Shown: one piece after another, positions 6,345-10,155 of the stretch | How positions within the stretch are numbered: position 1 is the first letter of the stretch | Layout of the letters: every line of letters starts with the position of its first letter | Source: Patescibacteria group bacterium | GTDB lineage: Bacteria; Patescibacteriota; Minisyncoccia; Phycocordibacterales; 21-14-all-36-13 | Length of the DNA: 51,831 bases | Assembly (NCBI GenBank): GCA_018899555.1 | Contig: JAHIHZ010000011.1 | Coordinates: 1-51,831 of the forward strand | Direction of reading: 5' to 3' | Program-made: the position numbers and the translations under genes | The notes under the pieces: model-generated | Databases searched by the model: none | What the model saw: the letters and a program-made list of their open reading frames with translations, nothing else | What the model was told of the DNA's origin: nothing

Positions 6345-6362
6345 TCTTTTGTTTCGTTCAAC
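6345..6362 (-). promoter_or_regulatory. 3' half of 16S precursor processing stem (pairs with 10138-10155)
   Basis: TCTTTTGTTTCGTTCAAC at 6345-6362 is the exact reverse complement of 10138-10155. This gives an 18-bp helix bracketing the 16S gene, as in RNase III processing stems. Confidence 0.6.
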
Positions 6363-6625
6363 TGTCAGTTTCGCGCATCCGACAAAAAGCGAATGTATTT
6401 TTAAGATACAACATTATTATCTCTAACTCTGCTTTTAGCATAGTAGATCAACCTTTTCAATCTTGCTTCCTTGAGTGAAACAAGAAAATTTTAATTTAAA
6501 ATAATCCACGGCCACCTTCCGGTAGCCGTACCTTGTTACGACTTACTCCCTGTTACCGAATTTACCTTAGTTCGTCAAAGACGAGCTTCGGGTACCCCCG
6601 GCTCCCTTGAGTTGACGGGCGGTAT

Positions 6626-7583
6626 CGCATTACACAATGATTTCAATATATGTCAATAGTGTATGCACACCACTGGGCAAGCAGTTTTCCTGCACCCTAG
6701 CGGTTTCCATAGGTTTTCGCTTTTTTCCCTCTCTTCCTAATCTCATCACGAAGTCTAACAATTTTATTAAAACCCCTGTCTGTAAGATGTTCTTTTTTAG
6801 ACATCATTAAAACAATTTTTTTAAAAATTTTATAAACTTCCGCTTTTTTGGCTTGTAATGGATTTTTATCAAGAAAAGGGAAAAGTTTCGTTGTTAAATC
6901 TTTTAAATTATTTATCTTATATTTTGAATGAGGAAACCATCCATATCTATCATAAGACAGATCATAAATTCTTCCACACCCAATTGTTATAAGAATTCTC
7001 TCTAAAATTTTTTGATCATCGGCACGAAGTTCTATTTCAAATTCCGGTCGAATTTCAAATCTTCTTTTAAGAGTTTTATGTTTCCCTATGCTTATAGAAA
7101 AAGATCCCTCTCCGTCTATAAAACCAGAAACATAATTTGGATTTAATTTTTTCCTATGAATTTGTTCCTTCCCAATTGGTTTTTTTAACTTCTTGGTACT
7201 ATGAACTCTGCTGACTTCTTGCATAACATTTAAAAAAGATTGCTCTTTTATATACCTCGATGTTATCACACACCGAGGATTATGCAAGATCTCCTGTGGT
7301 AACTATATAGACCATTTGTTTTCATCTCGATATCACTACACGCAATATGTTTACTTTGACACAGTAGGCTTCTCCATATACTCGCAGGATGACCTACATA
7401 TTGCGCCACAGACTGATATTCAAGCTAAAAACTGCTAATTTCTCCCTTCACTGAATTTCCTCACGGAAAACAGCTGAGATTTCGCTTCAAAACACTGTGA
7501 CTTATTTTGGCCTGATTTCCAAAAACTTTTTTTAAAAAAGAAGTTGGGCACAGACTGGCTTATATAATCGCACAGCGACCCGA
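6626..7583 (-). mobile_element. 958-nt intron-like insertion in 16S between E. coli C1395 and A1396, carrying a LAGLIDADG gene; ribozyme class not assignable by eye
   Basis: Exon sequence GCCTTGTAC stops at 7584 and resumes as ATACCGCCCGTCAACTC at 6625. Joining the two restores the universal CCUUGUACA(C/U)ACCGCCCGUC. The insertion ends in G. The group I core motif seen in the other introns is absent. Confidence 0.7.
6697..7287 (-). CDS. LAGLIDADG homing endonuclease (single-motif type)
   Basis: Contains YVSGFIDGEGSFSISI. About 190 aa, located inside the rRNA insertion. Confidence 0.8.
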   Translation of the reverse strand: MHNPRCVITSRYIKEQSFLNVMQEVSRVHSTKKLKKPIGKEQIHRKKLNPNYVSGFIDGEGSFSISIGKHKTLKRRFEIRPEFEIELRADDQKILERILITIGCGRIYDLSYDRYGWFPHSKYKINNLKDLTTKLFPFLDKNPLQAKKAEVYKIFKKIVLMMSKKEHLTDRGFNKIVRLRDEIRKRGKKAKTYGNR

Positions 7584-7804
7584 GTACAAGGCTCGAGAAC
7601 GTATTCACCGCAGTATGCTGACCTGCGATTACTAGCGATTCCAGCTTCATGGGGTCGAGTTGCAGACCCCAATCCGAACTAGGACCGATTTTTAGGATTG
7701 GCTCAGGATTGCTCCGTCGCGACCTATTGTATCGGCCATTGTATTACGTGTGTAGCCCAGGGCATCAAAGGGACATGCTGACCTGGCGTCATCCTCTCCT
7801 TCCT

Positions 7805-7885
7805 CCCCTCCCTAAAAGAATTTTCAAACAAGAAGTTCGGCTTCTCAAGAGGAAGCCAAACTTCGAAAATTCACTTAGGGAGGGG
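7805..7885 (-). other. expanded 16S helix (about E. coli 1160-1175 region)
   Basis: CCCCTCCCTAAG ... CTTAGGGAGGGG encloses a second hairpin (GTTTGGCTTCCTCTTGAGAAGCCGAAC). E. coli has only about 15 nt at this position. Confidence 0.6.
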
Positions 7886-8235
7886 CAGTCTCGTCTGAAA
7901 TTTATAACAGACAACAAGGGTTGCGTTCGTTTCCCTACTTAAAGGAACAGCTCAAGCCACGAACTGACGACGGCCATGCATCACCTGCCTATCCGTTAAG
8001 ATTTTCTGTTTCTAGAAAAACATAAGATAGGTTTCAAGCCCTGGTGAGGTTCTTCGGTTAGTATCGAATTAAACCACATAATCCACCGCTTGTGCGAGCC
8101 CCCGTCTATTTCTTTGAGTTTTAACCTTGCGATCGTACTACCCAGGCGGTTCTCTTAATGCGTTAGCTTCGCCTCTCAGAGGGTCGATACTCCGAAAAGC
8201 TAGAGAACAACGTTTACGGCGTGGACTACAGGGGT

Positions 8236-8795
8236 CACTTTTGTTACGAAGTAACAAAAAAATTAAAAATGTAAAAATCAAAATGAAAAATTACAATTTA
8301 AAATTCAAAAGTTACCGGATACAACATTTCTGTGTATCTCTCTATGTCGCCATAGAGGTCGGACTATATCTTCACCCGGCACTTTCTGAAAGTGCTGGGG
8401 TTTGGCATGTAGTCTCTGAGGAGCCTTGCGTGCTATAAAATGCGGGCAACAGCACCTTTAACACACAAGTTTCCTGCTGATTGTCTGCATCGGTTTGAGA
8501 TTGTTACTATAATATATCAATAGTACTCGAACATTCGCAGAGTTTCCAGCATATAGCCAAATTACAATCTACTGTTGCCAGTAGAAGAGACACTGTTCGC
8601 ATTCTCTCACCTACTTGAGTGAGCATTTTCTTTTTTAAAACATATGCAGGAGATGAAATAAAAATCAAGGAGTCGCATAGGAAAATGAAACTGTTTGAGT
8701 CCTGCAAGGCAGGATGAGTTTTTCATTTTCCGTCATAAGACGATTATGATTTTTTTCATCGAAACATCGTTTTGAAAAAGAAGATGCGAACGTTT
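8236..8795 (-). mobile_element. group I intron in the 16S 790 loop (between U793 and A794), no ORF
   Basis: Splicing restores GGAUUAGAU|ACCCCUGUAGUCC. Core elements CCTCAGAGACTAC (P7 5' side) and GAAGATATAGTCCGAC (J8/7-P7', compare Tetrahymena AAGAUAUAGUCGGACC) are present at 8345-8425. The last intron nt is G and the last 5' exon nt is U. Confidence 0.8.
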
Positions 8796-9111
8796 ATCTA
8801 ATCCCTTTCGCTCCCCACGCTTTCGTGTTTCAGTGTCAGGAAATGTGCTAGTTTATTGCCTTCGCTTTTGGTGTTCCCCATAATATCAACGGATTTCACC
8901 CCTACACTATGAGTTCCATAAACCCCTCACACCCTCTAGTTGTACCGTTTCTTTTGCAGTTCTTCGGTTGAGCCGAATGTTTTAACAAAAGACTAATACA
9001 ACCACCTACACACCCTTTACGCCCAATGATTCCGGATAACGCTTGGGGCCTCTGTATTACCGCTCCTGCTGGCACAGAGTTAGGAGCCCCTTATTCATGA
9101 TCTGATGTCAA

Positions 9112-9230
9112 TCGCTCCGCGATTCCCACGCGGATAAACGCAGACAACAATGCGGATAGACGCGGATAAAAAATATCTGCGAAAATCTGCAAAAATATCT
9201 GCGAAAATCTGCGAAGAAATCGCAAAGCGA
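9112..9230 (-). repeat. V3-region expansion of 16S built from ATCTGCG/ATCCGCG-type repeats
   Basis: About 120 nt lie between ...GATTGAAGAAG and TTGACATCAGATCATG... The segment consists of tcgcagattttcgcagatatttttgcagattttcgcagat... and tatccgcgtctatccgc... Confidence 0.65.
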
Positions 9231-9466
9231 CTTCTTCAATCATAAAAGATCTTTACGTCCCTAAGGACTTCATCAATCACGCGATGTCGCTCCGTCAGGC
9301 TTTCGCCCATTGCGGAAGATTCTCGACTGCTGCCACCCGTAGGTGTATGGACCGTGTCGCAGTTCCACCGGTGGAGGTCAGGCTCTCACCTCTCCTAGAC
9401 GTCATAGCCTTGGTAAGCTTTTACCTTACCAACTAGCTGATATCCCGCAGGCCGATCCCAAAGCGC

Positions 9467-9518
9467 CCAGCACATATTTTGATTTTTGAACAATTTCAAA
9501 AATCAAAATATGTGCTGG
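9467..9518 (-). repeat. 52-nt near-perfect hairpin inside 16S V2
   Basis: CCAGCACATATTTTGATTTTTGAA-loop-TTCAAAAATCAAAATATGTGCTGG. Confidence 0.7.
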
Positions 9519-9532
9519 ACTTTACTCAACAC

Positions 9533-9825
9533 TTTTTTTATTTTACAAGAGATTCTTTAATTCGCTTTTTTATATATGTTCGAGCATTGCCATAATGTTT
9601 TAATCCTTTCTCCCGAGCTCTTGCATCTTCTTCGGATCTATATGATTCGCAATATACCAAAATCCACGGTATTCCAAATTTAGTTGATTGATTTATTCCA
9701 TCATTATGATGTTTAAGTCTCTCGGATAAATTTGTTGTAAATCCGAAATATAAATCTTTCGTTTTTTTGCTTTGAATCACATACACCGTATAAAGTTTCA
9801 TGAAGCTAATTATAAAATAAAAAAA
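9533..9825 (-). mobile_element. 293-nt insertion in a 16S V2 hairpin loop consisting almost only of a GIY-YIG ORF
   Basis: Bounded by an 8-bp inverted repeat, CTCAACAC (9525-9532) and GTGTTGAG (9826-9833). No group I core is visible. Confidence 0.65.
9538..9801 (-). CDS. GIY-YIG nuclease domain protein (87 aa)
   Basis: The N-terminus YTVYVIQSKKTKDLYFGFTTNLSERLKHHN is the GIY...YIG/R/E pattern of GIY-YIG domains. Confidence 0.8.
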   Translation of the reverse strand: MKLYTVYVIQSKKTKDLYFGFTTNLSERLKHHNDGINQSTKFGIPWILVYCESYRSEEDARAREKGLKHYGNARTYIKKRIKESLVK

Positions 9826-9925
9826 GTGTTGAGACTATCAGGTATTATCCCGCCTTTCGACGGATTATCCCTGACTTTGGGGGTCGTTCCTACGTGTTAC
9901 TACCTCGTTTGCCATGTTTTCTCGT

Positions 9926-10064
9926 CTACGGCGAGAACGCTGATGTTCGCAGATGGGGCTCGCTTGCGCTCGCCTTCGCAGATGTTCGCTGATATTTAAA
10001 AATTATATCTGCGTTAATCTGCGTTTTTTATCTGCGTTAATCTGCGGTCTTGTCGTAGACAAGA
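9926..10064 (-). repeat. 139-nt module expanding 16S helix 6 (V1); near-identical copy inside 23S (49169-49366)
   Basis: CTACGGCGAGAACGCTGATGTTCGCAGATGGGGCTCGCTTGCGCTCGCCTTCGCAGATGTTCGCTGATATTTAAAAATTATATCTGCGTTAATCTGCG... ...GGTCTTGTCGTAGACAAGA is shared with the 23S copy. Confidence 0.85.
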
Positions 10065-10137
10065 TACATTCGACTTGCATGCCTAATCCACATCGCCAGC
10101 GTTCATCCTGAGCTAGAATCAAACTCTAACTTAAAAA

Positions 10138-10155
10138 GTTGAACGAAACAAAAGA
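10138..10155 (-). promoter_or_regulatory. 5' half of 16S precursor processing stem
   Basis: Exact complement of 6345-6362. Lies just upstream (minus sense) of the 16S 5' end. Confidence 0.6.

Follow-up and report, generated by a model that had tools for sequence, protein, structure and literature searches.

Insertions in the ribosomal RNA (rRNA) genes of bacteria from the candidate phyla radiation (CPR) are said to have been reported already by Brown et al. in 2015, a study cited here second-hand. Contig JAHIHZ010000011.1 (assembly GCA_018899555.1) of a Patescibacteria group bacterium, all 51,831 nucleotides of which were analyzed and are referred to below as the window, contains a 16S rRNA gene of this kind on its minus strand. 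The organism is an ultra-small bacterium of groundwater. We read the 16S gene as a working one into which three sorts of element have been inserted, at seven sites in all, and whose precursor would be matured by splicing of two introns, with the elements at helix tips either cut out or kept; we put the probability of this reading at about 0.85.

According to the text of a survey by Tsurumaki in 2024, 48% of 380 CPR 16S genes carry insertions of at least 100 bp, with maxima of 16 such insertions per rRNA gene and 5,627 bp per 16S gene; the classes described are group I introns, group II-like insertions with LAGLIDADG_1 genes, GIY-YIG open reading frames (ORFs) solely in non-intron insertions, and short uncharacterized insertions of less than 200 bp (PMC11270868). 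The same text places group II-like insertions in 16S only at about position 1400, with 39 of 53 encoding LAGLIDADG_1, and describes the rRNA genes of CPR genomes as usually single-copy (PMC11270868). Removal of CPR rRNA insertions from transcripts is reported there and in a second text from metatranscriptomes (PMC11270868, PMC9698310). Thiomargarita and relatives (Salman et al. 2012) are described as having rns-1396, a group IIC intron whose domain IV holds a LAGLIDADG gene of the single-motif type (PMC13190283).

The window gene resembles the CPR insertions as these texts present them: the phylum and the classes are the same, there are several insertions per gene, the 23S gene is even more heavily loaded, and nothing differs in kind. 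It thus adds an example of the documented insertion-laden rRNA of Patescibacteria. A preliminary description of the window had called the combination of so many classes unusual, a view that is not supported, as all of the classes and heavier loads appear in the survey text (PMC11270868). Of 27 other genomes that share the group II intron, four have a longer stretch between the 8F site and position 1395 than the 2544 nt of the window, the values for the 27 spanning 1323 to 3492 nt. However, the survey text does not mention two features seen here, namely inverted repeats that bound the GIY-YIG insertions, which occur in two orientations, and hairpin modules common to the helix tips of 16S and 23S (PMC11270868).

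Extent of the 16S gene

The gene, its seven inserts and the stem that encloses it are as follows (E. coli positions are marked Ec).

10134-6504, minus strand: 16S rRNA gene, 3631 nt, from RF00177, E. coli blocks and the arithmetic of core and inserts.
9920-10064, minus strand: h6 hairpin module, about 144 nt (128-nt insert), with ends (U)CUUGUCUACGACAAGAC...AUCUGCGAACAUCAGCGUUCUCGCCGUAGACGAGA.
9525-9833, minus strand: GIY-YIG cassette of 309 bp at the tip of h9 (Ec 184-193), 288-nt insert.
9467-9518, minus strand: near-perfect 52-nt hairpin in h10 (Ec 198-219), 48-nt insert, termini UCCAGCAC...GUGCUGGG, -38.2 kcal/mol.
9112-9230, minus strand: hairpin expansion of h17 (V3), 108-nt insert, -64 kcal/mol.
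8236-8795, minus strand: group I intron without an ORF, placed after U793 in the h24/790 loop, 560-561 nt, core at 8618-8340.
7805-7885, minus strand: hairpin expansion of h40, 71 nt versus 5 nt in the model, -51.5 kcal/mol.
6624-7581, minus strand: group IIC-like intron between C1397 and A1398, 958 nt, from RF01998, the junctions and covariation in domains 5 and 6.
10137-10156, minus strand: 5' strand of a leader/trailer processing stem, complement of the downstream strand.
6344-6363, minus strand: the stem's 3' strand, some 140 nt beyond the 3' end of the 16S gene.

A cmscan run with the bacterial 16S model RF00177 gave 1084.7 bits against a gathering score of 50 and covered model positions 1-1533, which identifies a complete bacterial 16S on the minus strand; positions 749-1397 alone gave 511.7 bits. 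The program set the 3' end wrongly at 7537 and did not bridge the 958-nt element, whereas the true 3' domain with h44 and h45 lies at 6623-6504, its end being placed by reading h45. BLAST against E. coli rrsH returned matching blocks at Ec 8-66, 103-193, 243-439, 494-794, 794-1395, 1398-1419, and 1483-1532. Insert lengths were taken from the cmscan alignments, and insert positions were also read from the sequence. Subtraction of the inserts, which sum to 2161 nt, leaves a core of 1470 nt with 67% identity to E. coli.

These values agree with the preliminary description, which had proposed a 16S gene of about 3.6 kb with conserved blocks of about 1.45 kb and had suggested a check of its secondary structure; by the covariance model, all domains of the core are present. 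The six insertions that it listed are all present at or within a few nucleotides of the positions that it gave, but the interrupted sites number seven. Its V2 item, a GIY-YIG ORF plus a 52-nt hairpin, occupies two helices, h9 and h10, rather than a single site.

The processing stem that brackets the gene is likewise real, although it is longer than the 18 bp first noted. It comprises 19 perfect Watson-Crick pairs (10137-10155 with 6345-6363), or 20 counting a terminal G-U, and is lengthened by a further 6-bp helix (-36.7 kcal/mol by duplexfold). Its sequence is identical in L005, the only close relative, so no covariation could be obtained.

At the 3' end of the 16S (6504-6515), the sequence GGAUUAUUUUAAA lacks the anti-Shine-Dalgarno CCUCC. 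This motif is also missing in many Paceibacteria-like relatives, whereas loci of Magasanikbacteria and Uhrbacteria type retain GGAUCACCUCCUUUCU (loci L008-L087). A Shine-Dalgarno-like motif precedes only 2 of the 29 ORFs of the window, and several of these ORFs have TATAAT 6-7 nt before ATG, a spacing that suggests leaderless mRNAs.

The two introns

The group I intron reported in the preliminary description was recovered by cmscan with RF00028 at 83.4 bits against 50 (E 1.9e-21, model positions 1-253), a match to the conserved catalytic core (P3-P9). Its boundaries are set by exon U8796 and intron G8236, so that the exon ends in U and the intron in G. With splice sites marked by slashes, the junctions read ...GAUUAGAU / AAACG...AAAGUG / ACCCCUG, and removal of the intron joins GAUUAGAU to ACCCCUGUAGUCC, which restores the 790 loop as GAUUAGAUACCCCUGUAGUCC. 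Three related group I copies (family D13) lie in or near the 23S gene.

The second intron contains the following parts.

7581-7574, minus strand: 5'-terminal linker GGGUCGCU, 8 nt, followed by GUGCG at 7573-7569.
7165-7254, minus strand: match to Rfam group-II-D1D4-1 (RF01998), 54.9 bits versus 35, E 6.8e-9, full-length model.
6697-7224, minus strand: gene for a LAGLIDADG_1 homing endonuclease of the single-motif type, 175 aa counted from the ATG at 7224, PF00961 at 1.3e-20.
6670-6703, minus strand: domain 5, 34 nt, with a CGC triad and two bulged nucleotides on its 3' strand; it encloses the stop codon of the ORF.
6627-6666, minus strand: domain 6, in which the A at 6631, eighth from the 3' end of the intron, is bulged; the last two intron nucleotides are AU.

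For this element the preliminary description had the length of 958 nt and the LAGLIDADG ORF right, but it left the insertion unclassified and placed it at C1395/A1396. A search with an alignment of LAGLIDADG homologues gave 80 loci from many Patescibacteria lineages, and comparison of their junctions places the intron between C1397 and A1398. The upstream junction in 76 loci reads CUUGUAC-UC followed by a variable start, mostly GGGUCGCC-AUGCG, and because the UC after GUAC is invariant in these 76 loci, it belongs to the exon. The downstream junction in 79 loci reads ...AU / ACCGCCCGUCA; the last two intron nucleotides vary, and a few relatives end the intron in AA, GA, CA, or GU. An intron-less relative reads GUACUCACUGCCC and GUACUCAC. 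Correspondingly, the window has ...GUACUC / GGGUCGC...AU / ACCGCC. In many relatives, sequences near the 5' end of the intron are complementary to GUACUC, which bears on possible EBS1-IBS1 and EBS3-IBS3 pairing with the exons. The near-universal A1396 is U here (7583), in all 76 intron-bearing relatives, and in the intron-less L093; as judged from these relatives, U1396 is native to the lineage.

Domain 5 is supported by covariation. Across 79 sequences, 99.1% of its cells are paired and 6 of the 13 pairs have changed on both sides; none of 500 shuffles reached this score, and 3'-shifted controls were 34-46% paired. The basal helix of domain 6 is 72% paired in the same 79 sequences, in a loose alignment, with all 7 pairs changed on both sides. 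The RF01998 match, which reads AGAAGUCAGCAGAG..CAUAGUA..GAAGG and overlaps the conserved N terminus of the ORF, MQEVSRV, is taken by us to be domains 2-3 with J2/3, on the model of the Oceanobacillus iheyensis IIC intron sequence. The PF00961 match covers residues 54-159 of the long ORF with one motif, GFIDGEGSF. There are 583 homologues of this protein; the best 120 of the 583 are 66-100% identical, and those with a named source come from Patescibacteria.

Two other assignments were considered and discarded. The coordinates in the preliminary description would imply a group I intron with its terminal G at 6626, which was rejected on the RF01998 match, the structure of domains 5 and 6, and the comparison of junctions. 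With a 5' splice site immediately in front of GUGCG, 10 surplus nt would remain in the decoding centre; this site was ruled out by the intron-less GUACUCAC together with the known occurrence of 5' terminal linkers in LAGLIDADG group II introns (PMC13190283).

Several points nonetheless weigh against reading both elements as introns that can splice. In the group I intron, the one P1 candidate found, GUCUUAU at intron position 55, is imperfect: it makes 6 of 7 pairs, with a U-G at the splice site. The second intron does not begin with GUGYG, as GUGCG sits 8 nt inside it and AUGCG replaces it in most relatives; its domain 5 has one extra unpaired A on the 5' strand; and RF00029 (Rfam Intron_gpII, domains 5 and 6) gave no match at the gathering score or at E values up to 10. 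The linker, the extra A, and the negative result with RF00029 make it an atypical group II intron, the splicing of which may be hydrolytic or protein-assisted.

As far as the published descriptions allow, this intron is of the same site and type as 16IS9 (PMC11270868) and rns-1396 (PMC13190283). It shares with rns-1396 the 16S site (apart from a difference of a few nucleotides in numbering), the single-motif LAGLIDADG ORF in domain IV, the absence of a reverse transcriptase, and IIC features including the CGC triad in domain 5. Compared by description, the two differ in that the host here belongs to Patescibacteria and not to Thiotrichaceae, the window intron has the 8-nt linker, and its ORF overlaps domains 3 and 5.

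Elements at helix tips

The remaining five inserts all fold as long hairpins that prolong their host helix. The GIY-YIG cassette in h9 ends in perfect 21-bp terminal inverted repeats (9833-9813 and 9545-9525), which form a stem of -23.3 kcal/mol. Its ORF (9801-9538) encodes 87 aa with a PF01541 match at 7.1e-13. A -10-like TATAAT at 9814-9809 ends 7 nt before the ATG, with the spacing seen at several other window genes, and both this motif and the stop codon fall within the 21-bp repeats. The protein consists of the catalytic domain alone; TIGR01453 scored 16.5 bits against a cut-off of 56, and the closest solved structures are UPF0213 BH0048 and Slx1, not I-TevI. Enzymes of I-TevI type combine a catalytic with a separate DNA-binding domain in about 200-250 aa and usually lie within a group I intron. 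That architecture was not found here, where the protein is without a separate DNA-binding domain and Rfam detected no ribozyme around the cassette.

We compared 10 distinct homologous elements with 51-74% protein identity. Inverted repeats frame the ORF in each of them, starting with CCCAGCAC(C/T)TT and ending with GTGCTGGG; they are about 21 bp long (21-25 bp), and the window variant is CUCAACAC/GUGUUGAG. Repeat positions -2 to +18 are paired in at least 9 of the 10 elements, and in all 10 at 19 of the 21 positions, with several pair types at most positions. Likewise, the inner end of the 5' repeat has TATAA(T) and the 3' repeat overlaps the stop codon across the 10 elements. Within rRNA genes, the cassettes occur in h9 of 16S in sense orientation (four elements), at the same h9 site in antisense orientation (L105-L108), in h17 of 16S, and in 23S domain I-II; outside rRNA genes, they occupy three intergenic sites, two of which are upstream of rplJ. 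This pattern fits a mobile element at the DNA level, with palindromic ends that would be harmless at a helix tip in either orientation.

The ends of the cassette recur without the gene at one further place in the window, and the termini of the h10 hairpin are like the cassette repeats of other genomes.

32668-32705, plus strand: intergenic hairpin of 38 nt, CTCAGCAC...GTGCTGGG, with termini as in the cassette repeats and without an ORF.

These two, in h10 and at 32668-32705, are the ORF-less hairpins with cassette termini in the 52 kb; the strict terminus pattern was found 2 times in the window versus 0.01 expected. The P8 hairpin of the group I intron (8375-8399), CCCAGCACUUUCAGAAAGUGCCGGG, is also similar to the cassette termini, which may be coincidence. 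A tblastn search with the GIY-YIG protein found no match in the unrelated 305-nt V2 insert of L005, which is thus not a decayed copy of the cassette. When the literature was searched for inverted repeats around GIY-YIG genes, the matches were all unrelated mitochondrial papers, which is not proof of novelty.

RAYT/REPIN systems (REP-associated tyrosine transposases with REP/REPIN hairpins) consist of a small HUH/Y1 transposase gene flanked by an inverted short sequence that also forms ORF-less hairpins elsewhere. The cassette is alike in that its nuclease gene stands between inverted copies of a sequence found as ORF-less hairpins elsewhere, and it may leave such hairpins with the same ends as a GIY-YIG counterpart of RAYT/REPIN. 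However, its enzyme is a GIY-YIG protein of UPF0213/Slx1 type, only two ORF-less hairpins are present in 52 kb, and its mobility is deduced rather than known.

The second kind of hairpin is represented by the h6 module, which includes four CGCAGAU and two AUCUGCG units and as a whole forms one long hairpin of -60 kcal/mol. The h17 insert is made of four (C)GCAGAU units, three of them exact CGCAGAU, with degenerate complements. Rfam at permissive thresholds gave nothing credible for the hairpin inserts, with chance microRNA-like matches on the h10 hairpin only. Two paralogues of the h6 module are present in the 23S gene.

49163-49365, minus strand: paralogue of the h6 module at 23S H63 (Ec 1704-1770), with an extra nested hairpin of about 58 nt.
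50323-50457, minus strand: divergent paralogue in 23S between Ec 925 and 941, 66-70% identical.

The H63 paralogue is 98.3% identical to the h6 module over 115 nt and 100% identical over 26 nt. A metagenome scan with an invariant 22-mer of the module gave five contigs, and every match lay inside an rRNA gene: h6 of 16S in three contigs, one of them the close relative L006; near Ec 930, H45, and H63 in one 23S contig; and near Ec 275 in another. In contigs from Hainich groundwater, taken as one organism, the copies are 95-100% identical across sites, which points to recent spread or homogenization between sites, and they hold common features that differ from the window copies. Full modules of this type, 135-200 nt long and without an ORF, were found only in rRNA genes, where they take up as many as five helix tips (16S h6 and, in 23S, near Ec 275, near Ec 930, H45, and H63). 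We tentatively propose, as a reading that we hold at somewhat less than even odds, that the non-intron inserts represent two families of DNA-level mobile hairpin elements, an autonomous GIY-YIG cassette of about 310 bp (CCCAGCAC...GTGCTGGG) and an ORF-less module.

The CGCAGAT unit occurs 38 times in the window versus 3.1 expected, with clusters in the inserts of the rRNA genes, in arrays between genes, and in frame within ligA. Arrays with 10 and 13-14 bp spacing lie at 11241-11281, 19408-19447, 23102-23141, 17171-17201, and 44839-44855, in intergenic DNA or 3'-UTRs (untranslated regions) and in one case in ligA. At 11144-11219, beside the CGCAGAT array that precedes the promoter region of the 16S gene, there are five or six tandem 11-bp units (TTAAGTCCGCG). 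Runs of a heptamer, which is TTTGTGA on the plus strand and CACAAAT in the transcript, are present in intergenic DNA and 23S inserts at 6252-6313, 5124-5157, 51111-51144, and 51613-51646, and a 121-nt segment is 80% identical between intergenic DNA (32488-32608) and a 23S insertion (50944-51064).

Classical intervening sequences (IVSs), best compared with these helix-tip elements, also occur in some 16S genes. Those cut by RNase III are described in helices 25 and 45 of 23S in Salmonella and Coxiella (PMC4990558). The likeness lies in the position at helix tips, a long closing stem, sporadic occurrence among relatives, and the small ORF of some; one copy of the h6-type module in a relative stands at 23S helix 45. 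A helix tip together with a long near-perfect stem is found here at h9 (21 bp), h10 (52 nt), h40, h6, and h17. However, a single module family here occupies several different helices in the two rRNAs, and identity between its copies reaches 97-100%. Rickettsia palindromic elements insert at tolerant surface positions of essential genes, including RNA genes, and in intergenic DNA; they are unrelated in sequence and host, and the full hairpin modules seen here were found only in rRNA genes.

Proposed maturation, rival explanations, and surroundings of the gene

From structure, conservation, and distribution, we infer splicing, cleavage, homing, expression, and cassette mobility in the terms that follow. 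Both introns sit in critical single-stranded regions, the 790 loop and the decoding centre, and each would have to be spliced exactly because the mature rRNA presumably cannot tolerate extra sequence there; for the group I intron, this would apply to the 790 loop. The LAGLIDADG enzyme presumably spreads the group II intron by DNA homing into intron-less alleles. Cleavage of an intron-less target site is described for the CPR enzyme I-ShaI, which is a different enzyme from that of the window (PMC11270868). In the transcript, the cassette repeats would pair in either orientation and thereby prolong h9 by a perfect 21-bp stem, and the four ORF-less hairpins would prolong h6, h10, h17, and h40. 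An enzyme of RNase III type could then cut the helix-tip elements at their long stems, which would give a fragmented 16S rRNA, or else the elements would be kept as surface expansions.

Which of the insertions are present varies among relatives whose rRNA is 90-99% identical, and the GIY-YIG cassette is absent from them. L005 and L006 are 98.7-99.8% identical to the window over most of the exons and both intron segments and 93% identical over the 5' end and leader. They share the h6 module, whereas their V2 holds the unrelated 305 nt and their h40 an unrelated 168-nt hairpin. After U1498 they carry a further insertion, about 825 nt long and including a LAGLIDADG_2 ORF (L005 5123-5949; also in L007), of which the window has none; the L005-type relative with this extra insertion has an identical LAGLIDADG protein. 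In L096, the exons of which are about 90% identical, the h6 module and the group II intron are present and there is no GIY-YIG cassette, 790 intron, or h40 insert, and L098 has at the 790 site a different 1.19-kb intron with a double-motif LAGLIDADG ORF. Judged from these relatives, the insertions are independent of each other and dispensable.

The strongest competing view concerns the fate of the five helix-tip inserts (h6, h9, h10, h17, and h40), which might stay in the mature 16S rRNA as surface expansion segments, with the h6-type module maybe serving as a binding platform. The host helices of all five do differ in length among bacteria, and the inserts stand at their tips as simple prolongations of them; moreover, the invariance of a 22-nt stretch of the h6-type module at up to five rRNA sites and across genomes could be due to selection on the RNA. 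We still consider retention unlikely. That relatives with 90-99% identical rRNA are without these inserts, or have unrelated sequence in their place, argues against a needed function; a 267-nt loop with a protein gene that is sometimes antisense would be an improbable component of a ribosome; and CPR insertions are reported as absent from transcripts in the texts cited above (PMC11270868, PMC9698310). Excision of the helix-tip elements is the outcome that we favor by analogy.

Doubts about the gene itself carry far less weight. It is very improbable that this is a decaying pseudogene with a working 16S gene elsewhere in the genome. Only 52 kb of the genome is in view and the gene is unlinked to 23S, but no second 16S gene was found within the 52-kb window, the core reaches its 1084.7 bits with all domains present, and the processing stem is intact, as are the promoter-like site, the two ribozyme cores, and the two ORFs. 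The same architecture recurs in many related genomes, in a group for which the survey text gives a single rRNA copy as usual (PMC11270868). The preliminary description had likewise taken the unit for a functional precursor rather than a decayed gene, which these intact parts, the terminator-like site, and the two identical assemblies described next bear out. Its own concern about chimerism corresponds to an assembly made of rRNA fragments and mobile elements from different organisms, which we find scarcely credible. Even though rRNA genes and repeats are classic sources of misassembly and many related contigs break inside 16S, a 4601-nt stretch of the locus is 100% identical in ENA ERZ27247124 (89.8-kb contig) and in GCA_018899895.1, which argues against a one-off chimera; a related strain has the same junctions at 98.7-99.8% identity, and the canonical 16S sequence is restored at every junction. 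The LAGLIDADG protein is also identical to one annotated in the Patescibacteria metagenome-assembled genome (MAG) GCA_018900715.1, contig JAHIFN010000004.1. The genes around the 16S are ordinary bacterial ones (GatA, LigA, and the type IV pilus proteins PilB, PilT, and PilC), and together with the Patescibacteria MAG record, they ruled out an organelle origin, which the mix of group I and group II introns, LAGLIDADG, and GIY-YIG had prompted us to consider.

Further features near the 16S gene are listed here.

10348-10375, minus strand: promoter-like site TTGACT-16-TATAAT, 11/12 matches (consensus match only), about 190 nt upstream.
6213-6239, minus strand: terminator-like hairpin between the 16S trailer and tRNA-Ile (consensus match only).
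6062-6136, minus strand: tRNA-Ile(GAU) 3' of the 16S gene.

The 23S gene shares its strand with the 16S gene but is unlinked to it, lying about 34-36 kb upstream; behind the 16S gene come only tRNA-Ile and then a gene of YkuD type. The 23S gene (43802-51831, minus strand) is cut by the end of the window and extends over at least 8 kb; compared with E. coli, its insertions number 11 or more. There are two group I intron matches at gathering level in it, another sequence near 44890 that is related, and LAGLIDADG ORFs at three places (48337-48696, 45382-46125, and 44123-44599). Its inserts total about 5.3 kb within the window, near the published maximum of 5,750 bp. Elsewhere, segments of a region of about 2 kb (36204-38228 versus 41158-43020) are duplicated about 4.8-4.95 kb away with 90-95% identity, which looks like a recent tandem duplication of protein-coding genes.

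Insertions such as these hide Patescibacteria from standard 16S primers and complicate assembly. The published "uncharacterised short insertions" may have a testable origin, in a tiny nuclease gene framed by repeats and in a hairpin module that recurs at rRNA tips. If these elements are mobile, they would show how the bacterial ribosome gains expansion-like segments, and their conserved stems would be a defined substrate for asking how cells mature such precursors.

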